Below are positions 9,300 to 50,101 of a stretch of DNA of 64,000 bases, in pieces. This stretch comes from Octopus vulgaris. Taxonomy: Eukaryota. A program made the translations under genes and the position numbers. How positions within the stretch are numbered: the first letter of the stretch is position 1; every line of letters starts with the position of its first letter. The DNA lies in assembly GCA_951406725.2 (NCBI GenBank), contig OX597824.1, forward strand, positions 3,410,001-3,474,000, given 5' to 3'. The notes beneath the pieces were generated by a model that saw nothing but the letters and a program-made list of their open reading frames with translations, was not told the origin of the DNA and did no database searches.

Positions 9300-9832
9300 G
9301 TTAAGTTAAGTTAAGTTAAGTTAAGTTCATTTTTTGGCCCAAAAAGCAAAAAGCAAGGCCATGTAGGGGGACATGGAGTTATGTACAGGGACGATGTTCA
9401 TGCAAAAAGTTCAGGCCATTTCTGGTCAAGAGAGACTTTGAACCGAGCGGTCGTCGGCATCTTCACTATCTCGTCCGGCAGCTTATTCCATGGATCTGCA
9501 ACCCGGACGGAGAAAGCCCCTCTCCTTCGATTGAGATGAAATCGTTACAGATAGAGCTTTTCGGAGTGACCCCGCAGCCTACGCTCTGGAGCAGGAGTGA
9601 AGAACAGCTCTTTCGAGAGGTTACACTTTCCGCTTATGATGTTGTGAGCGAGAATGAGCTCACTACGGCGGCGGCGTTTTTCTAGAGAATAAAGGTCGAG
9701 CGTCTTCAGCCTTTCTTCATAAGACAAATGCTTGAGACCAAGAACCATGCGGGTAGCCAGCTTCTGGACTCTTTTGAGATGATGTATGTCTTTGAGGAGA
9801 TAAGTAGAAGAGGCTTGAATCCCGTACTCCAA
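9300..9832 (-). mobile_element. CR1-clade LINE 3' end, 5'-truncated, with (AACTT)n tail
   Basis: Reads LEYG...KRVQKLATRMV.GLKHLSYEERLKTLDLYSLEKRR...RLRGHS.KL..., then FSVRVADPWNKLP. Pentanucleotide tail at 9300-9327 and flanking aatatgt direct repeat. Confidence 0.92.
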
Positions 9833-10394
9833 TATGTATGTATGTATGTGTGTGTTTGTGTGTGTGTGTGTGTGTATTTGTGTGTGTGTATATGTGTGTG
9901 TGTTTGTGTTTATCCCCCACCATCACTTGGCAGCCGACGTTGGTGTGTTTATATCCCTGTAGCTTAGCAGTTTGGCAAAAGATACCAACAGAATAAGAAC
10001 TAGGCTTACAAAGAATAAGTTCCCAGGTCAATTTTATTCGACAAAAGGTGGTGCTCCAGCATGGCTGCAGTCAAATGACCGACACAAGGAAAAGAATCTT
10101 CTTATTGCTACACAACACAAATACAAACGTTGAATTTCAAACCCATAATCACCACACGTAGCTACGGTCAAGAAGTGTGGACCTTTGGAGCATCATCATC
10201 GAAATGGAGATTGCCACATCAAGAACTATAGAACCTTAAAACCATAAAACATTATATAATACACTTTTCTAAACAGTGTGTGTATGTGTGTATGTGTGTA
10301 TGTGTGTGTGTGCTCCAGTATGGGCACAGTCAAAAGATCGAAACAAGTAGAAGGATAAAAGAATAAAAGAATACACTTAGATAAATCATAAATA

Positions 10395-13668: not shown

Positions 13669-14520
13669 GAGAAAATGTTGCAAAGACTTGCAACAACATT
13701 TGTGAAGTTTATGGTGATGATGATGCTGTAGGTGAATGAACTGTTTGAATGTGGTTTGCAAACTTTAAAGCTGGAGAGTTTAGCTTGGAAGATGACAGTG
13801 GCAGATAGGGAAGACCTTCAAAATTGGATGAAGATGTTTTGAAGGCTAAAATTGAAGAAAACTCAAAAATCACAAAGAGAGAACTTGCAGAGGAATTGGA
13901 AGTTTCTAAAAATATGGCTCATGAACACCTAGTGAAGCAAGGATACATTTTTTGCTATAATGTATGAGTCCCTCACAAACTCTCAGAAAAGAATTGCTTG
14001 GACCGGTATTCCATTTGTGATATGCTTTTGAAATGGAATGAAGGCATACCTTTTTTGAAACAACTTGTGGCTGGAGATGAAAAATGGATTGTGTTTGAAA
14101 ATGTAGCGTGAAAAAGATCCAAAGATCCTGGAGTTTGTGTAATAATCCCCCAAAACAGCGACCAAAGACGAATATCCATGCCAAAAAAGTTATGCTTTGT
14201 GTTTGGTGGGAATGTAAAGGCATTATTTATAATGAGATTCTCCCACAAAACCAGACCATTAAGTCTGATGTATGCTGCCATCAGCTGGCTAATTTGAAAC
14301 AAAAAAATCAAAGAACTGAGGCTAGAGATTGCCAAAAAGAAAGGGGTAGAGTTCCAACAAGACAATGCCCAACCACAAGGGTCTTTGATTAACCAAACAA
14401 AGTTACATGAACTTGGCTGGGATCGCCTACGCCATCCACCACATTCCCCTGATATTGTACCACCTGACTCCCACTTGCTTTGTCTTGACAGAACTCATTG
14501 CAAGGAAAAACATTTAATGA
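13669..14520 (+). mobile_element. Mariner (DD34D-type) transposase fossil
   Basis: Motifs V*VPHKL (WVPHEL), VAGDEKWI, KKVMLCVWWECKGII, FQQDNA and HPPHSPDIVPPD, with stops and frameshifts. Confidence 0.93.
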
Positions 14521-14659
14521 TTTAAGTCCTGTAAAATAATTGAGAGGGTTGGGCCTCCAACCATGCCTTTTGCAAGACCCTGGGGGCTTTTCAGCATCCC
14601 CTTATACAAATATACATACATACATATATATGTGTGTGTGTGTATATATATATATATAC

Positions 14660-14950: not shown

Positions 14951-15137
14951 GATATATATATATATATATATGCACGCACACACATACACACACACGCACA
15001 AGCATTTGCGACGTTGTAAATACTACCTGATTTGCGTTAATCTCTAATCCTTCTATAAACAAGTTCATCTCAAACCGAACGGATTTGCTCCACCCTTCAT
15101 ATTGTAAGTGAAATCAAATTTGCTTTCGTTAATACAG

Positions 15138-15214
15138 ATTTATTCATGCACGCAGTCAGTGAAGGTGGCAATTTCGGGAATAGATTTCGTTTAAATATCT
15201 TCTTCAAAATGGAG
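15138..15214 (+). other. Candidate exon ending ATG GAG|GTAAGT
   Basis: Acceptor-like tttgctttcgttaatacAG at 15136-15137, consensus donor gtaagt at 15215, and locally CpG-rich unique sequence. Confidence 0.4.
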
Positions 15215-15273
15215 GTAAGTTCATTAATTTTAATTAATGTTATTTGCCATTGTCACTTGTTGTTGTTGTTGTT

Positions 15274-15304
<31 letters not shown>

Positions 15305-15319
15305 CTGCTTGTTTGTTTG

Positions 15320-15495
15320 TTGAGTGAAGTGGTCTTCGTCCCAGAGTTCGCAAGATGGGAGAAGTCCAAAACGTGGTCCTTTGCTATTCGTAAGACCCGC
15401 AGAAGAGAAAGCAGGTCAACCCCCGACACCGAGAGCATCGACGGATGAATGAATGCGCATCCAGGCTCAGCAGTTGCGTAGGAAGTTGGGGATGC
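15320..15495 (-). mobile_element. Isolated 3' tail module of SINE family C between (TTG)n tracts
   Basis: Near-identical to 36960-37125 (gggagaagtcc.aaacgtggtcctttgctattcgtaagacccgcag...). Confidence 0.8.
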
Positions 15496-38126: not shown

Positions 38127-38210
38127 CAGCAGCAGCAGCGATTGTGTACCAGCTGAAAACCGAGAAAATAAAGCATACACACAATCCAGACATTTTACTA
38201 GTCACATGCT

Positions 38211-39075
38211 AGGTCAGCTAGGTCATGTATGTCAAAGGTTAGGTACTATGTGAGTCACCTGGGTCATGTTGCTGTTTAACCCTTGGACAATCCGATGCGA
38301 ATAGATCTATCACAAAAAAGCATTCCACGTGAGACCATCCTCGTCGTTGTTTAAAATTTTAATTTTCGTTGTTGATGTTTTTTGCGGAAGCCGGGTATCC
38401 GGGTATCCGGGTTTGTATTTTGTCATGCTTTCTTTCTCTTTCGAAGAATGTACGTATATGATCCGACACAGATTTGGCTGCTATTTCTAGCAGCTCAAGC
38501 AACCACACAAAAATCTCCTTTTATTGGATTCGTCGGAGCTGGAATAGATTTTGGTACCGAAAAGAAAACCTAGTTTTTGGTTTGTTGATCAAAAATCTTA
38601 TAGCACCGTCTGAGTCACCAAGTTAAGGTAAAGGTCAAAAGTTACACTCAAACCAGAGTTAGTTAGGTCATACTTAGGTCAAAGGTTGTACTCCTTCTTT
38701 ACAACTTAGGTCAAGTGCAGGTCAAAGGTTATATCTCCATCTTATTTAACATGTGAGTTTAGCATTGCACTGGAATTCACGCAGACATCCGCTTCCTGAA
38801 TTCTGTCGGCTTCATACCTTCGCTTTAGGTCGAGAGAACCTTTACGTGGTCGTAAAAGTCAGCTAAAAATAGCAGTCAAGTTTCACTCGAATCATATCCT
38901 GGACGATGTCATCTTAGATTCGCTTCGTCGGAAAAATGAAAAAAATATAACATAGAAGCAATAAAAAAAAGGTGGGGTGGGTTTTGATTACAGGTCAGCC
39001 TGTTACAGGATCACCTGGGGTTAAAAAGCAAAAGAAAAATAAACTACAAAAAAAAACCCCGACGAAGTCAGGTCA
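38211..39075 (+). promoter_or_regulatory. Cluster of nuclear-receptor response elements (DR3, two DR5, several DR1) with AP-1 sites
   Basis: AGGTCA at 38211, 38220, 38632, 38665, 38676, 38708, 38719, 38992 and 39070. TGAGTCA at 38251 and 38611. Confidence 0.65.
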
Positions 39076-39517
39076 CCGTCACGACTGCTACTACTATCAC
39101 CACTAATACTACCACTACAAGTAGAGAATACTAGAGACTTCCACATGTCCCCCCCGCCCGCTTCTCCCTCCATTTCTACCATCATTACATTCAACACATC
39201 ACCATCAGTGCCACTCTTATTGCTAACAGAACTAACAAGATTTACATCATCTTTAACCCACCACCACCACCACCATCCTTATCATCCTTATCATTACCGA
39301 CGGCAATATCGCCACCACTACCACCACCCTTGTTAACATTACCAACGGCAATACCATCAACAACGCCACCCTCCTTACGCCGTCGCCACTAGTAGAACTA
39401 TCACCATCACCACCACCACCACCACCGCCATAATCGTCATCACTATCGCCAACATTAACTCCAAGAACACAGCAGACAAGTGCAATGATGACTGGATGAG
39501 TCTACTACTGTAATTCT

Positions 39518-39555
<38 letters not shown>

Positions 39556-39820
39556 CCGTACGTAGACGCACGTATACACATAGATACACATTAGCGTACA
39601 TACACAGATATACAGGCGCGACTACACACACACACACAACGCGCGCGCGCTCTCACAGTAGTAGCACACTTACACACACGCGTGCGCACACATAGTAGCA
39701 GACACGCACACTCACACACACAAACACGCACAGAGCTGGCACACGCAGCAGCTTGGATGAAGAGAGAGAGAGAGAGAGAGAGTGATCGGACTACTGGCCT
39801 CACCAACCATTCATGCATAC

Positions 39821-39946
39821 CTGCTCGGCTATCTTCGATGATGTGATTTCCCGGGTTCGATTGAATCACCATCGACAGCTCCATGACTGATTGGATTCTA
39901 CAAACATCAGCGATTCTCTTCAGAAGCTTTGAAAACCGTTTTGGAA
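39821..39946 (-). CDS. Candidate 126-nt symmetric (phase 1-1) coding exon, product unidentified
   Basis: Polypyrimidine tract plus AG at 39948-39947, donor CAG|GTATGC at 39820, and an open frame PKRFSKLLKRIADVCRIQSVMELSMVIQSNPGNHIIEDSRA. Confidence 0.35.
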
Positions 39947-41052
39947 CTCGAATTACAAGAGAGACGGAAGGATAGGTAAAAAGAGAGGTAAAACAGCCAG
40001 ATTAATTAGCAGCTAATTGGATTGACAGACGAATGGATGAATAGATTATATTATGAATCTATAAGGTACGTGTACGCAGATGGAGATATATAAGGTTCAT
40101 GTATATATACACAGATATACAGTCAACAAGATAAACAGACACGTAAATAGATAAATTACGAGAGAGAGAAATGGTAGAACCAGTGCGCGAACACGCAGCT
40201 ACAGACATACCTCAACTGATATAAGGAATATACATACGTAGAGCTGTACATATATATACTCGTACTTAATCATACATACACACGCGGACAGCACGGATTT
40301 ACAAAACTATTTCACAAGAGAATGTTTCCTTCTAAGAAACGGTAAGAACAATTCCAGCCTTTTTCCTTTCCTTTTTAATTTGGTTTTGTTGATATTTTCT
40401 CTCCCCGAACCACCCCGAATTCCATCCAACGAGCATTGCAAGAAAAAGATGAGTTGTTTATGAGATTTTCTCGCGCATGTGACATATGCGAGTGTATATA
40501 TGTATGTGTGAACGGAACTCAGGTGTGTATATAGAAAATGGTTTGCGTTGCTGTGGCAGATATTACGTCTGTGTAAATTCTATGAAATTAACTCGATTAC
40601 GTAGATGTGTATTGAATACAAATGTAAAGAAAGGGGAACCACCTTTTCGATCTTGTTTTTTTTTATTATGTTTCTTTTTTTCTGTATATCTGTGGATTAT
40701 TTATAAACAGAATCTGTGTGTATAAGATGTTATTAACAGAGTCGACGAAGACCATCACTATTTAACTCAGATTCCCCCGTTTCACAGTGTGTCTCTGTTC
40801 CCCTACTGGACAAAACAGGTGTGTATTTGATCGGAAGCTATGTAGACTTATATGCACCACGTACGATATATATATATATATAACTCTATAAACATATATA
40901 TGCGTATATACACAACTCTATAAAAATATGTGTATACATATACACGCACATACATACATATACATGTATGCGTCACGTACATACGTGTGTGTAATACAAA
41001 ACGGCAGACACAGGTGTGAACAAGAATGAAGTACTCAATATAAAAAATGTTG

Positions 41053-41093
<41 letters not shown>

Positions 41094-41243
41094 TATATAT
41101 GTGTGTGTGTGTATACAGAATGAAATGAAACCAAGTCTTGTAGAAGCTCGCTAGTCCTAAACCCATCCACACAAACAATATTACAAGCATTTGGAGTGGT
41201 TTGGCTGTTCGACCCGAGTCGTAGGTAATGGTAACATGCATCG

Positions 41244-41294
<51 letters not shown>

Positions 41295-41296
<2 letters not shown>

Positions 41297-41490
41297 AGAG
41301 TTTACGAAAAAAACAAAAGACGAAGACAGGTGGTGTACAAAACAAACAGATGTATTAGTTTAACGCTCAGGAATAGAAAAAGTCTTTTACGTTTCGAGCC
41401 TACGCTCTTCTACAGAAAGGGACACAGAAAAAAAAAAAAAAAAAAAACAAGGAGAGAGAAAATTGTGTGTAGTAGCTAACAATCTATCAT
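41295..41490 (-). mobile_element. Penelope-like terminal fragment in (TA)n with a hammerhead-like motif (41382-41423)
   Basis: Inverted homolog of 60820-61000, flanked by (TA)n on both sides. Confidence 0.65.
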
Positions 41491-42679
41491 ATATATATAT
41501 ATATATATGAAAACTTCACGTATCGTTACTCCAAGTTTTCTCGACCTAAGATCGAAAATGATAAACTCCGAGTAAACGAATTGTGAAGTTTTCAGCTTCT
41601 AATAAAACCCGATATATGTAATGAGCCAACATTTTTTGAGGGGGCGGGGTACGTACATTATCATTGCATACATTTGTTGGTACGGTGAAGTAAATAGCGA
41701 CTGTGTTGTGTTGGTTTGGTTGACTAATCACACACCGCCGCCCTCACCCGGTCACCTTCGCTAGGCCAGGCTAATCCTTTCAAGTTAAAAACTGTCTTAG
41801 AAAATGAGGACACATCCATTTCTCAATGGACTCAACCTGGGAATCGACGGGATGGTCACGGTTGGAATATCTGTTCGACCAAAACTGAGCTGGGGGAGGG
41901 GGCCAAACAACAAACTGAGAATATCTATGTGGTTAATCGGTTTGCTAGAAACGGCAAACAAATTCTGCCGAGTCACACCTTAGAAAAGAAGGGCGTGTTA
42001 ATGCGCTTGTCAATATGTTTGTCAATGGACACTGTACATACGAATAGACGGGATGGTCACAGATGGACTATCTGCTCGAACAAGACTGAGCTGGGGCCAA
42101 ACAACAAAGGAACTGTTCGAGCGGGAGCTAAAGAATGAAGCAGGAACCTTCATGAGCATCGCTACGAAGTATCGGTCTGAGAGTGACCGTGTGTGTGTGT
42201 CGTTTGTAAAAAAAACATAAATCCGAAAGAAGAGGTACACTCCAAGATGTAGAGCAGTTTAATATTAATATATTTATTTATGATATCAGCCAAATCACAA
42301 CTCTGCAATCTTAGAAAAGGTAACCAATTAAAGAATAATTTATTTTACTGCTTCTTCTGGCTGAGACCCTTTTTTTAGTGAAATGTGTTGTCTGATGATT
42401 TAATAATATTTTATGAAAAACATGTTCCTTAATTTCGAGTTGTTGATTAGGTAGCGTACGCTTTGTAGCTTTTGGTGGTCACGCTGGTTTGACTAAGCGG
42501 TTTACATCACTATTGCTTCGATTAGGGCCTAAGGGAGGATAAGTAATATATATATATCGCTTGGGGCTCGGAAAATTCGTGGTAACTCATGAAATGTAAA
42601 ACTGTTCGCATTTATTGAAGACATACTTTGTCGTGCTTTGGGTCATCGTGTCCTGGTGGAGTGATAGGGGTACTAGCAT

Positions 42680-42821
42680 AACTAGCGGGGAGCAGTAGGG
42701 GCAGTTCTCCACGGGCGGCACCACTTTGGGTCTACTGTACACAATATGTGTTTTTTGTGGGATCCGAGGGTGACAAATGGAAGGGCCGCCCCGGGCGGCA
42801 CACACTCTAGCTTCGTTAGTG
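42680..42821. mobile_element. GC-rich MITE of the 4155 family; related decayed elements at about 43165-43315 and 44225-44390
   Basis: gaagggccgccccgggcggcacacactctagct is the near reverse complement of 4164-4197. Confidence 0.7.
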
Positions 42822-42921
42822 GATAGGGGTACGTTGAGACATGCGACTTGTCTCGGTCATCGAAGAACTGGTGGACTCCAGGCCTGACCACAACTAACTT
42901 CTTTCGGAAGGAATCAATCAC

Positions 42922-42967
<46 letters not shown>

Positions 42968-43923
42968 CGACCCCACTCTGGGATTGATATTTTAGTTATC
43001 GCCCGCAAAAGATGAAAGTTACCATTGCAAGCTACTGCAAACGGTGATCGGCGGTCTTTGAGAACACCTGTCACTTTCTCATGGAGAAGGAAGAAAGCAA
43101 AGAAATGAGTTTTGCCTCAATCCATTGCTTACTCTTTTCCATCCCCATAGAATAAGGACAGTAAATTGCTGAGGAGGGCGAGGGGGCAGTCTGCTTCGGT
43201 CGATGCTTTTATGGATGGGGCACTTTTGGGTCTACGGTATAAGCTTGCATAGGCTTGGGAGTGGGGGGGGGGAGGTAGAGGACTGCTTCGGGTGGTACCC
43301 AGACTGACTACACTGACCAGAGATCGGAGACGAATGTAAAAATTTCCCAAGTTGACTTGGGTGGGATTTGAAACCCTGAGCGTCCTCCGCTTTACCGAAA
43401 ACCAGCATTCATACTTTGTTACACTGAATAGGCTGCACAATCAGGTCCGGTCTGCTCCGTGTTAGGCCCCGATCGTCTACCGTGTTGTAGCTTCTATAAA
43501 ATGCACCATGAAGTTCCTGGTATTGGTCATATGTCTGTGAATTCTTACGTCAGACATTTTATCGGAATACAACATAGAAATCATACAAACGAAAGAACTT
43601 CTACACTGCCAGGTAGTTTGCTAGAAACAGCAGCCAGATACTGCCAAGTCATATCCTACTGTTTTGTTTGTTTCTTTTTAAAGGTAAGGGCGCTTTGGTT
43701 AATGTGATCCGAAATATGTGATGGCCATGATTGGAATCGTCGTCGTCATCGTCGTGTCCGCTTTTGCAGTGTCTCGATGACACTAGAGAAAGTCTTCTAG
43801 ATTAAATTCGTTCTGATTTTCTCTGTGTTTTCTTGGCAGAGAAAAAATCTGGGTGGTTTGCCATTGCCTTCACGGACAGAATTGCCATTAGCCCACAAGG
43901 AGCTCATCCGCCCTTCTGGAATA

Positions 43924-44157
43924 CCTATTTCTTTACTACCCACAAGGGGCTAAACATAGAGGGGACACACAAAGACAGACAAACGGATTATGTCGATTAC
44001 ATCGACCCCAGTGCGTAACTGGTACTTAATTTATCGATCCCGAAAGGATGAAAGGCAAAGTCGACCTCGGCGGAATTTGAATTCAGAACGTAACGGCAGA
44101 CGAAATACTGCTAAGCATTTCGCCCGGCGTGCTAACGATTCTGCCAGGTCGCCGCCC
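43924..44157 (-). mobile_element. SINE family A with a 19-bp flanking direct repeat
   Basis: ccgcccttctggaatacct at 43908 and 44152. Confidence 0.92.
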
Positions 44158-45687
44158 TTCTGGAATACCTTTGATTATCAGCGCTCTGCTGCTTGATCAG
44201 GGCTGACCTGGGATAAACAACACGCCTAGGCGCGGTCCCAGGAATTTTTCGAAGGGAGAGCACAAGATCAGAAAAGAATACTATTCCAGGAGAAAAGAGG
44301 ATAACAAACATTATCTAGAAGAGCGCACTTCCTTTCTTGAGGAGGGCACGCGTCCCTCAGCGCCCGTCGCCCCTTGGGTTCGCCATGATGCTAGACTAGT
44401 AGTTTCCACCGGCCTCTTGTAAAATGTTGAAGTTTCTTCTTGGGGTTATTATAGAAGTACGAACAAAAAAGGGCGATAGAATGACGGACTCAGTGGGTGG
44501 GATGGAATCCACTACGGACGTAGTAACCCTTGCCGGATAGGGGTGAGGGTTACAGAAATATCAAAATCTGTCGGGGAATTACATATTTTTGTCGGAGTTT
44601 TAGAATACCAATCATGGGGAAGGAATGTGCCCTTTTCCTTCCTTCACGGGAAAAGAAAAGGGCACTAATCGGGAGGGGGTGGGGAATGTTAAAATATGAC
44701 ATTTTCGAAATAAATAATAATAAATTCTTCGGAATAAATTTCTCGTTATATAAAACAGAAGAATACAAAACAAAAAAAAAAAACCAAACAAATGCTGTTG
44801 GTTGCGTTTTTGCTCCGCTCTGAGGTTGTAACAGCTGGCTTTTCCCGGACTTCTCTCCATTGTTCAACACGTGGCATTTGAAATACATTCAAGAGGTGGG
44901 AATTGAGTCGCTAACGAAGGTTTTTATTTTTTTTTATTTTCTTTTGTTGGATATCCCATCGGACAGAGGTCACCAAAATGTTGCAAGAGGTCCCCAGCAC
45001 TTCCAATGCTTCGGTTTCGTGGTCGCCGGCAGCAACACCGACAGTTTTTTTTTTTCCGGTTTCCTCGAAATTTCTTAGAGGAAGACACCGATCTCTGGCA
45101 GTGCTAGAAATAACCGAACGAACGTGTATGTCCCTTTATTTTATTTACATTTTTCCCTTTTTTCACTTTTATGTTTTTTAAAATCATTTTTAGTGTTTAC
45201 CGTTATTAATTGTAATTACTAAAATTGTTTAATTAATCTAACGAACAATTTCAAACTCATTTCCTGAATTGCAGTCAAATGTCTCCACAGCTGGTTGCAA
45301 ACCAACGAACCGCGGAATTTACTGAATGGTTCGCTGAACGAAAATTTACCTTGAATTTTTTTAGTAGTGGGGCTTGCCTGTTAACGAGTGATGTCTTATG
45401 CGGCCCTCTCCTCGAAAAGGGTTGTCCATACCTGCGTTAGAGCATCGGGTAAAATGTCTTTGCGTTCCGAGTTCAAACTCCGCCGAGGTCAATTTCATTT
45501 TTCCTTAACTCGGGATAAAATCAATCACCAGTCAAGTGCTGGGATCGATCGGATCGGTTATTCCCTCGTGCCTAAACCAGAAGCGGATGTGCTGCCAAGT
45601 CATACATTACTGCTAATAGACACGAGGATCTTCATTGTGTTTGCTCGACCTGCTAGAAATAGCAACCAACTCTACTTTCAACTGGTA

Positions 45688-45948
45688 CCCAGGCGCGTAG
45701 CTTGGTGGTTAGGTTATTGGACTCACAATCGTAGTAATGTGGTTTCAATTCCCATACCGGGCGGTGCGCTGTGTTCTTGAGTAGAACGTTTCATTTTATG
45801 ATGCTCCAGTCCACAGCTGAGGGACTTTAACCACGCAAAAGACTGGCGTCCTATTCAGGGCCAAAGCTGTACTCTAAACGGATGCGTACACCCTTTGAAA
45901 GACTGGAAAAGGTCCGACCTGATGAGTCTCAAAAGGCTCGTGACAAAC
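45688..45948 (+). mobile_element. tRNA-headed SINE with a V-domain-like body
   Basis: Head ggcgcgtagcttggtggttagg...gtttcaattccc, then gactggcgtcctattcaggg...cctgatgagtc...ggctcgt. Confidence 0.6.
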
Positions 45949-47007
45949 CTAAGATGTAAGAACACATTGGATAATATATCGCTAAATACCTGGTTAAAAA
46001 AGAAAAGAAAAAACCCCGGAAATATTGGGTTCTCGTGACTGGAATCCTTTTGATCATATCAAGATTCACAACTAATACCTTTCCAAAGATCGCCGATACT
46101 TCTTCTGGCTTTTTACGTTCTGAGTTCAAATCCCGCCGTGGTTAACTTTATCTCCCCCACCACCACCATTCCCCGTCTCCGGGTCGATAAATTAGAGTAC
46201 CAGTGGAGCTTCGATTAAATTCCTCCCTAACAACACTTTGGATCTAATTAAGAAACCATCATCAAGACGGAGAGCTGGCAGAATGGTTAGCACACCGGAT
46301 AAAACAGCGGCAATTTGTCCGTCCTCACGTTATGAGTTCAAATTCTGTCCAGATCGACTTTACTTTTCATCCTTCTGGGATCGATGTACCAGTTGAACAC
46401 TGGGGTCGATGTTTCCTTAAGTTTCACCACCGTCATCCAAATGAAGTAAGAATGGCACTTCCATTACTACAGATTCTTTTGCTTTCTGCTTTTTTCTCGT
46501 TTATTTTAGTTTTCTTTGTTGTCAAGAAATTGGTTTCTGGTGAAATCTACTGGAATTTTACGAAATGAAGCGTCTTCTCTTTCATAGACTGCAACACTCC
46601 TGCGTCTCTTATAATACTATTTCCTTTGCGATGTCGTTCTTCTATTTAACCTGCTCCCACTATCCCAGTCTATTCATTGCGCTTCGCACAAGAACAACAA
46701 CAACAACACGTGTGTTTAACTGTAAATATCGATTTCGTCATACTCTAAGCACAAGGCCTCGAATTTGGCAGAGAAAAAGAGAAGGAACCATAAGTCTTCA
46801 ATTATAATTTCCATTCGCATTTCAAATGCTTTCTGGGAATATTAAACTAACACTAGCTCCGTCGTGGATAGCCAAGTCAAATTCCTTGGTAATTTATATA
46901 TTTTAACATTTTACGGTATCAAGTACCACGAAACTCACAGAATGCAAATAACTGTTCCCATTGATATATTCTATTAGACAGCTCACTGTTACACACACAC
47001 ACACCAT

Positions 47008-47731
47008 GGTATAACTACATTTCGTCTGCCGCTACGTTCTGAGTTCAAATTCCGCCGAGGTCGACTTTGCCTTTCATATTTTCGGGGTCGATTAAATAAG
47101 TACCAGTTGCGCACTGGAGTCGATATAATCAACTTAATCCGTTTGTCTGTCCTTGTTTGTCCCCTCTGTGTGTAGCCCCTTGTAGATAGTAAAGAAATAG
47201 GTATAACTACAGATTAGGGCCCCGATTCCCTCTCCATCAACTTTGTTTTTCCATAATTTACCTTTTAAAAATGCGTGTTTTTAAGTAAAATCTCGAAGAG
47301 ATATATTTTTGAGGCTGTGAATTATAATTATGTTAATAAAATTCAGTAAAAGAAACCGAGAGGAGTAGTTTCGGTTCACTTTTCGTCGCCTCCGCCTAGA
47401 CTTTGTTATAACTAATATCTGAGACTGTTTTAGTATTTTCCACATTTTGTCTCTGATTTATAGATTTGAAACTGTGACATCACGTAACCTACAGTCTCGA
47501 GAAGGTATTTCCTCAAAGTGGCATTAAAAAAAATATGCATTTTAAAGAGACCTATGAGAAAACAATGTCAGGCGCGAAGGAGAATCGTCCGAAACTCAAT
47601 TTTTTGTTCAAGCCAATCGTAATGTAGAGCCTCAAAAAAGTATCTGCGAAATTTCGTTAAAATAACTGTAAGAAAATACTTAGAAATTTGGAGAAACAAA
47701 GTCGGGTGAGGCGCCAAACTATAGTTATACC
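47008..47731. mobile_element. TIR DNA element (MITE) with a 5'-truncated family A SINE inserted in its left TIR
   Basis: TIRs ggtataactacagattagggcc and ggcgccaaactatagttatacc. The SINE at 47020-47199 has TSD ggtataactaca (47008, 47200). Confidence 0.8.
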
Positions 47732-48084
47732 GCTACTACTTTTGTCTGGTGTACGATATAATTTTAAACAGTAACGGACCCCGAATAAGTATAATGAATG
47801 TGACCCCGCTATCTCCTCAATCAATACTGGACCCAGTACTTGATTGTGGCTTTATCTCCAGTTCAGTAGATTCTTTTAAATCCTAACGAAATGAGTTATT
47901 ATTGATTTTGGTAAAAGAATTGTCACTTAGAGACGCGGAATTTCGTTGTGGCTCTTTACGTTCTGAGTTCAAATACCGCCGAAGTCAGCATTGCTTTTTG
48001 TGCTTTTGTGGTCGATAAAATAAAGTACCGGTCAAGTAACGATATCCCAAATTTCTGCTCTTGTACGTGATTTAGAAACTGTTA

Positions 48085-49487
48085 AAGGGCGGTGGAATGA
48101 CAGAATCGATTGGGCGGTGGAATGACAGAATCGATAGGGCGGTGGAATGACAGAATCGATAGGGCTGTGGAATAACAGAATCGATAGGGCGGTGGAATGA
48201 CAGAATCGATAGGGCTGTGGAATGACAGAATCGAAAGGGCAGTGGAATGACAGAATCGATAGGGCAGTGGAATGACAGAATGGATAGGGCTGTGGAATGA
48301 CAGAATCGATAAGTTGGTGAATGACAGAATCGATAGGGTGGTGGAATGACAGAATCGAAAGGGCTGTGGAATGACAGAATCGATAGGGCAGTGGAATGAC
48401 AGAATCGATAGGGCGGTGGAATGACAGAATCGATAGGGCAGTGGAATGACAGAATCGATAGGGCAGTGGAATGACAGAATCGATAGGGCGGTGGAATGAC
48501 AGAATCGATAAGTTGGTGAATGACAGAATCGATAGGGTGGTGGAATGACAGAATCGAAAGGGCTGTGGAATGACAGAATCGATAGGGCAGTGGAATGACA
48601 GAATCGATAGGGCGGTGGAATGACAGAATCGATAGGGCAGGGGAATGACAGAATCGAAAGGGCTGTGGAATGACAGAATCAATAGGGCGGTGGAATGATA
48701 GAATCGATAGGGCAGTGGAATTACAGAATCGAAAGGGCTGTGGAATGACAGAATGGATAGGGTGGTGGAATGACAGAATCGATTGGGCAGTGGAATGACA
48801 GAATCGAAAGGGCTGTGGAATGACAGAATGGATAGGGCGGTGGAATGACAGAATGGATAGGGCAGTGGAATGACAGAATCGAAAGGGCGGTGGAATGACA
48901 GAATGGATAGGGCGGTGGAATGACAGAATCGATAGGGCGGTGGAATGACAGAATCGATAGGGCAGTGGAATAACAGAATCGATAGGGCAGGGGAATGACA
49001 GAATCGAAAGGGCTGTGGAATGACAGAATCAATAGGGCGGTGGAATGATAGAATCGATAGGGCAGTGGAATTACAGAATCGAAAGGGCTGTGGAATGACA
49101 GAATGGATAGGGTGGTGGAATGATAGAATCGATAGGGCAGTGGAATTACAGAATCGATAGGGCAGGGGAATGACAGAATCGATAGGGCGGTGGAATGACA
49201 GAATCGATAGGGCGGTGGAATGACAGAATCGATAGGGCTGTGGAATGACAGAATGGATAGGGCTGTGGAATGATAGAATCGATAGGGCAGTGGAATTACA
49301 GAATCGAAAGGGCTGTGGAATGACAGAATGGATAGGGTGGTGGAATGATAGAATCGATAGGGCAGTGGAATGACAGAATCGATAGGGCTGTGGAATGACA
49401 GAATGGATAGGGCGGTGGAATGACAGAATGGATAGGGCAGTGGAATGACAGAATCGATAAGGTGGTGGAATGACAGAATCGATAGAG
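48085..49487. repeat. 25-bp minisatellite, about 56 copies, with higher-order duplications
   Basis: Unit gatagggc(g/a/t)gtggaatgacagaatc, head-to-tail with no spacers. Confidence 0.97.
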
Positions 49488-50101
49488 CGTGGAAAAATAC
49501 TTTTGTGGTATTTCTTTCAGTTCTTTACGTTCTGAGTTCGAATCCCTTTCGAGATCGATCAACTAAAGTATTAGTCAATTACTGAGGTGGAGGGTATCGA
49601 CTAACGTTAACATCCACCCCTCAAAACTGCGAGCGTTGAGTCTAAATTAGAAACAATTATTTGGAGCAGAGGTGGCGGGAAAATATATTTTGTGGTGTTT
49701 AGTTAAGGCTTTCTCCGTTCTGAGTTCAAATTCGGCCGAGATCAACCTCCCCTTTTAATCCACGGGGTTGAGTTTGTGGTCTCGTTAGAAACGTTAGAGG
49801 CGGTAATAATCATCACCAAGGATCATTAGAGCGTCTGGCAAAATGCCTTGCGCGATTCTTTCCGACTCTTTACATTCTGAGTTCAAATCCCGCAGCGGTC
49901 AACTTAGCCTTTCATCCTTTTGGGGTCGATAAAAGAAAGTACAAGAAAGTTGATGGTATCTTCTAACACCTAACCCGATCAACTACTGATTCGCCTTGTA
50001 TCTTAGCGGAAGTTATTGTATGGCTGTTTCCTGTATTCTTCTGATAATAAATGTCAAGGGAAGAAGAAAAGAAAAACAAGAAAAACGAACATTGAGGGAC
50101 A

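Follow-up and report, generated by a model that had tools for sequence, protein, structure and literature searches.

The GRAMD4 locus and its surroundings

The DNA analysed here, called the window, is a 64-kb stretch of the Octopus vulgaris genome (C11:3410001-3474000) which is abundant in simple and interspersed repeats. A 25-bp minisatellite of 56 copies occupies 48086-49494. Fragments at 2-832, 9545-9922 and 13809-14525 of the window and at L017:9569-10000 resemble LINE reverse transcriptase and mariner-type transposase, and a GIY-YIG fragment was found among these pieces. The genic features are the following:

15146-15214, plus strand: GRAMD4 upstream coding exon, 23 codons, GTAAGT donor after 15214
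39152-39210, plus strand: possible core promoter, GC box at 39152-39159 and TCAGT at 39205, consensus match only
39650-40341, plus strand: single-copy exon ending at a GTAAGA donor (40342), about 0.9-1 kb downstream of the AGGTCA cluster described below

The upstream exon lies in an open frame at 15059-15448 and encodes the N-terminus of two annotated isoforms, P0019 and P0022. The next GRAMD4 exon was found at C11:3523033, with the remaining exons rightward, and the exons here match Octopus vulgaris-labelled proteins at 100%. Since exon 15146-15214 precedes the cluster and the C11:3523033 exon follows it, the cluster is placed within the 98-kb intron 1 of GRAMD4, where the upstream exon is 23 kb away and the following one 74 kb. 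Under three octopus labels, some annotated GRAMD4 isoforms include the upstream coding exon and others lack it. The gene is described as an apoptosis gene (PMC11582632), and no link of GRAMD4 to nuclear receptors, retinoic acid or PPAR was found in the literature searched.

Two tandem pancreatic-lipase-like genes lie head-to-head with GRAMD4 on the minus strand (C11:3323223-3381254; L005-L011), and an Argonauta-labelled model merges both. At 12 kb upstream of the lipase start, a CpG-rich region at C11:about 3393500-3393750 (L012) carries clustered TAGTCG/CTAGTC, the rank-2 hexamer cluster in 264 kb. A single-exon frame of 428 residues at L004:2071-3354 belongs to the rhodopsin family of GPCRs.

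Twenty-four sequencing runs were listed for the cluster, none of them on record as RNA. Eight were examined, four being DNA or unclassified and four likely RNA (X4, X9, X16 and X17; their RNA nature is a guess, and their uncovered parts were excluded from use). Over the compared region 38140-48000, exon 39650-40341 was covered in three of the four likely-RNA runs, which come from three studies. Contigs from X9, X16 and X17 (depth 26-45) start at 39793, 39736 or 39650, all end at 40341 and continue beyond it for 343-2485 letters elsewhere; X4 gave flat, low cover instead. In the reading frame used by GRAMD4 exon 2, a stop stands just ahead of the 40341 donor, which would give the isoform starting with MSLRNA, present in the annotation for each of the three octopus labels. 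Exon 39650-40341 is likely an alternative non-coding first exon of GRAMD4, its join to GRAMD4 being inferred, and the gene adjacent to the cluster is most likely GRAMD4. A CpG-rich stretch spans 39251-40000, and the GC box and TCAGT at 39152 and 39205 are consensus matches to core-promoter motifs.

A cluster of nuclear receptor half-sites

Nine copies of AGGTCA are found at 38211, 38220, 38632, 38665, 38676, 38708, 38719, 38992 and 39070, all on the plus strand. The local excess claimed in an earlier note on this DNA is borne out, with 0.32 copies expected per 865 bp against the nine present (Poisson 8e-11 for the density over 865 bp, before look-elsewhere). The strand bias reported there is real in that all nine share the plus strand, but it is not independent evidence because direct repeats have a common strand. 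The runner-up among 865-bp stretches holds three same-strand copies (264 kb scanned), and AGGTCA is the rank 1 clustered hexamer of those 264 kb once tandem repeats are masked (3120 rows, every word counted twice; words containing all four bases). Direct repeats of this kind are concentrated as well, since six of the nine in 264 kb fall in the cluster (spacer 0-6, at most one mismatch overall). Over the entire 64-kb window no AGGTCA excess was found, with 41 matches against 35 expected and 41 reached in 16 of 100 shuffles.

At the scale of the 2.80-Gb genome, AGGTCA-N5-AGGTCA-A-AGGTT occurs twice, both times in the cluster (control 0), and this three-half-site fusion of DR5 and DR1 was found nowhere else. 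Pairs of AGGTCA-A-ARGTTR set 28-34 bp apart also occur twice genome-wide, both in the cluster. Since these search patterns were derived from the cluster itself, they speak for its rarity and not for its function. The perfect DR5 alone is frequent genome-wide (646 against 473 in the control), and the 13-mer AGGTCAAAGGTTA is barely enriched (190 against 161). A second RGKTCA-dense spot, at C11:3511140, was discarded as it is composed of repeat copies.

Anatomy of the two blocks

The DR3, the DR1 and the two DR5+DR1 modules described previously all read back in the sequence as claimed, and each subcluster has a TGAGTCA AP-1 site (38251-38257 and 38611-38617). The surrounding DNA had been called non-repeat, which does not hold: pieces of high-copy repeats lie at about 38456-38520, 38835-38900, 38930-38985 and 39052-39127. 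The actual element consists of two blocks, 38179-38266 and 38611-38761, which contain seven of the nine AGGTCA. In the list below, X5, X11 and X18 are sequencing runs that are compared in the next section.

38179-38266, plus strand: block A, half-sites at 38211, 38220 and 38229 (9-bp period, DR3-DR3) and GGGTCA at 38261-38266
38251-38257: AP-1 site TGAGTCA of block A, motif match
38456-38520, unstranded: high-copy decayed repeat piece between the blocks, inverted relative to the piece at 38862-38897
38611-38617: AP-1 site TGAGTCA of block B, motif match, no listed change in X18
38626-38644, plus strand: unit 0, DR1 AGGTCA-a-AAGTTA (38632-38644) with AAAGGTCA
38665-38688, plus strand: unit 1, AGGTCA-tactt-AGGTCA-a-AGGTTG (DR5+DR1), no listed change in X5, X11 or X18
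38708-38731, plus strand: unit 2, AGGTCA-agtgc-AGGTCA-a-AGGTTA (DR5+DR1), no listed change in X5, X11 or X18
38835-38900, unstranded: high-copy decayed repeat piece, from depth tables
38992-38997, plus strand: isolated AGGTCA, retained despite a 16-letter gap of X5/X11
39070-39075, plus strand: isolated AGGTCA in a high-copy-depth bin, past the end of the X18 contig

The summed depth of 38456-38520 exceeds 100,000 in X5 and X18, against 20-50 for single-copy DNA, and the AGGTCA at 39070 is probably outside the element. DR1s start at 38229, 38632, 38676 and 38719, the three of block B being spaced 44 and 43 bp apart; the first of them, ATGTCA-a-AGGTTA at 38229-38241 in block A, had been overlooked. 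A perfect half-site stands 5 bp upstream of each of the DR1s at 38676 and 38719, so that DR5s of the form RGKTCA-N5-RGKTCA begin at 38665 and 38708. In unit 0 an AGGTAA lies upstream of the DR1 and is altered in X18, a run from a related species. The recurring unit is the DR1, with four copies, and not the DR5, with two. Between units 1 and 2 the half-sites match at 17 of 18 positions and the spacers at none of five, in agreement with the claim of unlike DR5 spacers with kept half-sites, a pattern that is partly a consequence of how the units were found.

The AAAGGTCA of unit 0 is taken here to be an NR4A-type site by consensus. In the ROR/Rev-erb monomer consensus, RGGTCA is preceded by an A/T-rich 5' extension whose last base is T; such an extension had been proposed for several half-sites, and none of the nine AGGTCA fits this consensus. 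E-boxes (CACATG/CATGTG) at 38202-38211 and 38747-38756 flank the blocks in inverted orientation and fall within invariant runs.

Constraint in a related species

The X18 contig spans 38179-39055, with 65 differing letters and 46 gap letters. The changes listed (40 of 68 rows over all runs) cover 37 of 64 changed places in X18. Of these, 35 were used; they lie in three zones that avoid the bins covered by repeats and end at 38783, since equally supported rows are listed in order as far as that position and the list is cut beyond it. The other changes were assumed to fall after 38783 or under repeats. Among the changes listed for this one contig, none of the 74 motif bases differed, while 35 of 422 others did (p=0.003); with the fourth DR1 included, the counts are 0 of 86 and 35 of 410 (p=0.001). 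The blocks, which had already been recognised before testing, were changed at 4 of 172 positions and their flanks at 31 of 324 (p=0.001; one species, among the changes listed). Within the blocks, half-sites had been expected to be more conserved than spacers, and the counts lie in that direction without reaching significance (no change at 74 motif bases, four at 98 non-motif bases, p=0.10). Two invariant runs were found, the longer of which is:

38660-38761, plus strand: invariant 102-bp stretch in X18, among the changes listed, including spacers and tail

Its flanks were changed at 14 of 90 and 13 of 150 positions (X18, among the changes listed). The other run, 38179-38260, has 0 listed changes over 82 bp in X18. 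Taken together the two runs have a permutation p of 0.0005, and the longer alone has p=0.015 (65 random changes). They predict 113 of 871 shared 31-mers (0.130), which agrees with the measured share of 0.13 (86 sampled words) and thereby checks the picture drawn from the listed changes. A G>A change at 38261 in X18 converts GGGTCA to AGGTCA, toward consensus. X5 and X11 yield one near-identical contig with the same changes, C>G at 38705 inside 38660-38761 among them, and X15 is a 172-bp piece without changes; as X11 duplicates X5 and X15 is short and unchanged, neither is an independent comparison, and X18 is the one informative run of the four. By this comparison the blocks are changed less than their flanks, and the constraint is block-wide in one related species and one contig.

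Repeat and duplication origin

The earlier note had named a multi-copy repeat or decayed satellite as an origin that would undo a regulatory reading. Both blocks match only themselves genome-wide (DNA search with very common words skipped) and Tandem Repeats Finder called no tandem array at the cluster, so that this origin falls away in its multi-copy form. A local form of it fits in part, as the 44/43-bp, 9-bp and 41-bp periods are those of an old local duplication, and the two blocks resemble one another (repeat families D6-D8). The likeness of the non-motif tails between units is not significant (p=0.11-0.32) and the duplication itself is therefore only suggested. Origin from a repeat elsewhere was also rejected: 20 other DR5 or DR1 loci, chosen from the first 100 of 646 (DR5) and the first 100 of 190 (DR1 13-mer), have nothing in common with the cluster beyond matches of motif length and a single repeat piece of 34 bp. 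A perfect DR5 is carried by at least four repeat families of this genome (L024-L033, L041, L042), one of which resembles a LINE-type element.

Candidate receptors

Sixty-four zf-C4 matches were found in the genome, five of which were compared with solved structures. Clear DNA-binding domains are encoded for HNF4 (140 bits against 97 for the next), COUP-TF (150 against 118) and RXR/USP (98 against 77). Two further domains lean toward RAR, one being a half domain with 70 bits for RAR against 62 for ROR over 48 residues, and the other, L047, being ambiguous. Separately, C6:40512781-40529348 (L075:781-9753, L076) holds 13 PF00105 nuclear-receptor-type zinc fingers within 17 kb on one strand, and a single open frame of 2990 residues contains nine of these. 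Nine distinct domains of this array were caught by a P-box pattern, with CEGCKG in the last only and different P-boxes in the others. The locus reads as a receptor-like gene with many DNA-binding domains; the literature searched mentions two-domain receptors only.

PPAR/RXR elements consist of a DR1 plus an AT-rich 5' extension, and no match to this consensus was found at the cluster DR1s. For the other classes, binding data exist for the human proteins. There, AGGTCAAAGGTTA has HNF4a/RXRa/COUP-TFII scores of 4.5/40.3/10.9 and AGGTCAAAGGTTG of 3.8/15.3/6.9, compared with 12.0/62.6/19.0 for a perfect DR1, which amounts to 24-64% of the perfect element (PMC3384313). Both are on the 'common' binder sheet of that supplement, so that the DR1 13-mers of units 1 and 2 are in vitro common binders of human HNF4a, RXRa and COUP-TFII. 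On the array of human receptors the unit 0 13-mer, AGGTCAAAAGTTA, is bound weakly and by COUP-TFII alone, and ATGTCAAAGGTTA from the block A DR1 was not found in the supplement files searched (PMC3384313). The human receptors bind better when the perfect half-site is the 3' one (PMC3384313). In three of the cluster DR1s it is on the 5' side; without the preferred 3' perfect half-site, these DR1s would be of medium affinity. The HNF4-specific motif CAAAGTCCA (PMC3384313) has 0 matches in 38140-39700.

For molluscs, published studies report that gastropod RXR homodimers bind DR1 (PMC5398557) and that gastropod RXR/RAR binds DR1, DR2 and DR5 (PMC5398557; PMC9656583). The same three elements are bound by gastropod and annelid RAR/RXR (PMC5821490; PMC5398557; bioRxiv 10.1101/2025.03.09.642214). 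Two gastropod RARs are described there as lacking retinoic acid binding, and retinoic-acid-dependent activation in molluscs is argued against (PMC5821490; bioRxiv 10.1101/2025.03.09.642214).

An enhancer reading and its alternatives

The cluster is best explained, with a probability of about 0.6 and on the basis of its sequence, as a DR1-centred enhancer of the RXR, COUP-TF or HNF4 class, aided by AP-1, that would drive an internal GRAMD4 promoter. An old local duplication with a unit of about 44 bp may have multiplied one DR1, and selection would then have preserved the multiplied copies. The repeated DR1 is the predicted site for dimers of the RXR, COUP-TF or HNF4 class. Several such sites of medium affinity, set roughly four helical turns from one another and aided by AP-1, could make the output cooperative and dependent on signals. 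An additional upstream half-site, at a distance of 5 (or 3) bp, may offer a second register (DR5 or DR3) or a place for a third receptor. The putative first exon at 39650-40341 would splice to GRAMD4 exon 2 and so yield the MSLRNA-start isoform. The hormone-type enhancer proposed earlier is supported to the extent that a constrained, single-copy cluster of receptor type adjoins a transcribed exon; its retinoid version is not favoured because the recurring unit is the DR1 and not the DR5.

The closest rival keeps the perfect DR5s as the main sites, with a RAR/RXR-led element acting without or against retinoic acid, and is judged unlikely. The two perfect DR5s fall within 43 bp and have unlike spacers, gastropod and annelid RAR/RXR bind DR5, and the genome encodes the RAR-like half domain; many of the 646 perfect DR5s in 2.8 Gb lie in repeat families unrelated to the cluster. 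Against it, the DR1 is present in four copies and the DR5 in two, the place of the DR5 being taken by a DR3 in block A and by a degraded half-site in unit 0. RAR orthology is also unsettled by the scores given above for the half domain and L047, and two gastropod RARs are reported not to bind retinoic acid (PMC5821490).

A different target is slightly less probable still, namely the pancreatic-lipase-like pair or an unannotated transcript that owns exon 39650-40341. The DR1 receptors HNF4 and PPAR regulate lipid genes, a role that suits a lipase target, and the start codon of the nearer lipase is 67 kb left of the cluster on the minus strand; the partner exon of 39650-40341, for its part, is absent from the rows listed. 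These points are countered by the position of the GRAMD4 upstream exon, which sits between the cluster and the lipases, by the distance of only 0.9 kb from the cluster to exon 39650-40341, and by the result that no recognisable coding exon was found in the stretch separating the cluster from GRAMD4 exon 2 (28 of 386 filtered frames checked against Pfam).

It is improbable that the blocks are a neutral, decayed tandem duplication of a chance AGGTCA whose low divergence reflects a fluctuation or the nearness of a promoter. The periods (44/43 bp for block B, 9/41 bp for block A), the resemblance between the blocks and the non-significant contrast of motif and spacer within them would all suit such a relic. 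Cross-species constraint argues against it: the units diverge strongly among themselves, yet the orthologous units are without listed change over 102 bp. The half-sites also agree between units where the spacers do not, the tails leave duplication only suggested, and the cluster is single copy with no tandem array called. Least probable is constraint at the RNA level on the sense strand, through an intronic small RNA, a splicing element or a recursive splice site, for although the strand that carries every site is the one transcribed through the 98-kb intron, several read AG-GT and low-depth, likely-RNA contigs touch the blocks, RNA folding is ordinary on either strand (z 0.16, -0.50, 0.97, 0.24), no Rfam match in the window reaches the gathering score (two chance-level matches lie near the cluster), and no GT..AG joint occurs at cluster sites among the rows listed.

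Comparison with known elements and significance

The favoured DR1-centred enhancer has its nearest counterpart in the DR1 elements of RXR, COUP-TFII and HNF4a homodimers. Two of the four cluster 13-mers are letter-identical to measured common binders and share the A spacer, and the host encodes the cognate receptors HNF4, RXR and COUP-TF (PMC3384313). The cluster differs in its degenerate 3' half-site, its 44-bp period and its extra upstream half-site; it is also without the HNF4-specific motif, and the binding is known from human proteins only (PMC3384313). A second counterpart is the DR5 retinoic acid response element of RAR/RXR, for example those of chordate CYP26 genes (PMC5247814); the cluster resembles it in that its own two perfect AGGTCA-N5-AGGTCA stand close to a likely promoter and are without change in one related species. 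In the cluster, by contrast, the second half-site of either DR5 also serves a DR1, and GRAMD4, the probable target, is not among the known retinoid genes. Mollusc RARs, moreover, respond poorly to retinoic acid. No conserved CYP26-type DR5 was found in a limpet or an annelid (PMC5247814).

More generally, the array can be compared with two broader groups. Proximal enhancers can hold homotypic clusters in which transcription-factor sites are accompanied by AP-1, and the present cluster similarly combines AP-1 with multiple sites of a single class and medium affinity, in conserved blocks close to an exon that is transcribed; it was likely built by short local duplications and is known here from sequence. 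Repeat-borne DR elements exist, such as the DR2 of Alu. Many other perfect DR5s in this genome are also repeat-borne, whereas the cluster is single-copy.

The element class is already textbook, and the cephalopod example is a new instance of it. No characterised cephalopod nuclear-receptor element was found in the literature searched, and a recent review covers RXR/RAR studies in bivalves, gastropods and chitons and none in cephalopods (PMC12965858). A bolder version, in which mollusc RAR/RXR and a DR1 receptor compete or stack on the three-half-site element and so switch GRAMD4 between two N-terminal isoforms, is as unlikely as the DR5-led reading; if true, it would provide the first native cephalopod target for testing the role of a retinoic-acid-blind RAR. 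The value of the array lies in its testability. A compact, genome-unique and conserved array, with 13-mers bound by human receptors and an exon nearby, makes a ready test of octopus DR1 and DR5 receptors, and it permits asking whether RXR ligands alter a defined transcript.
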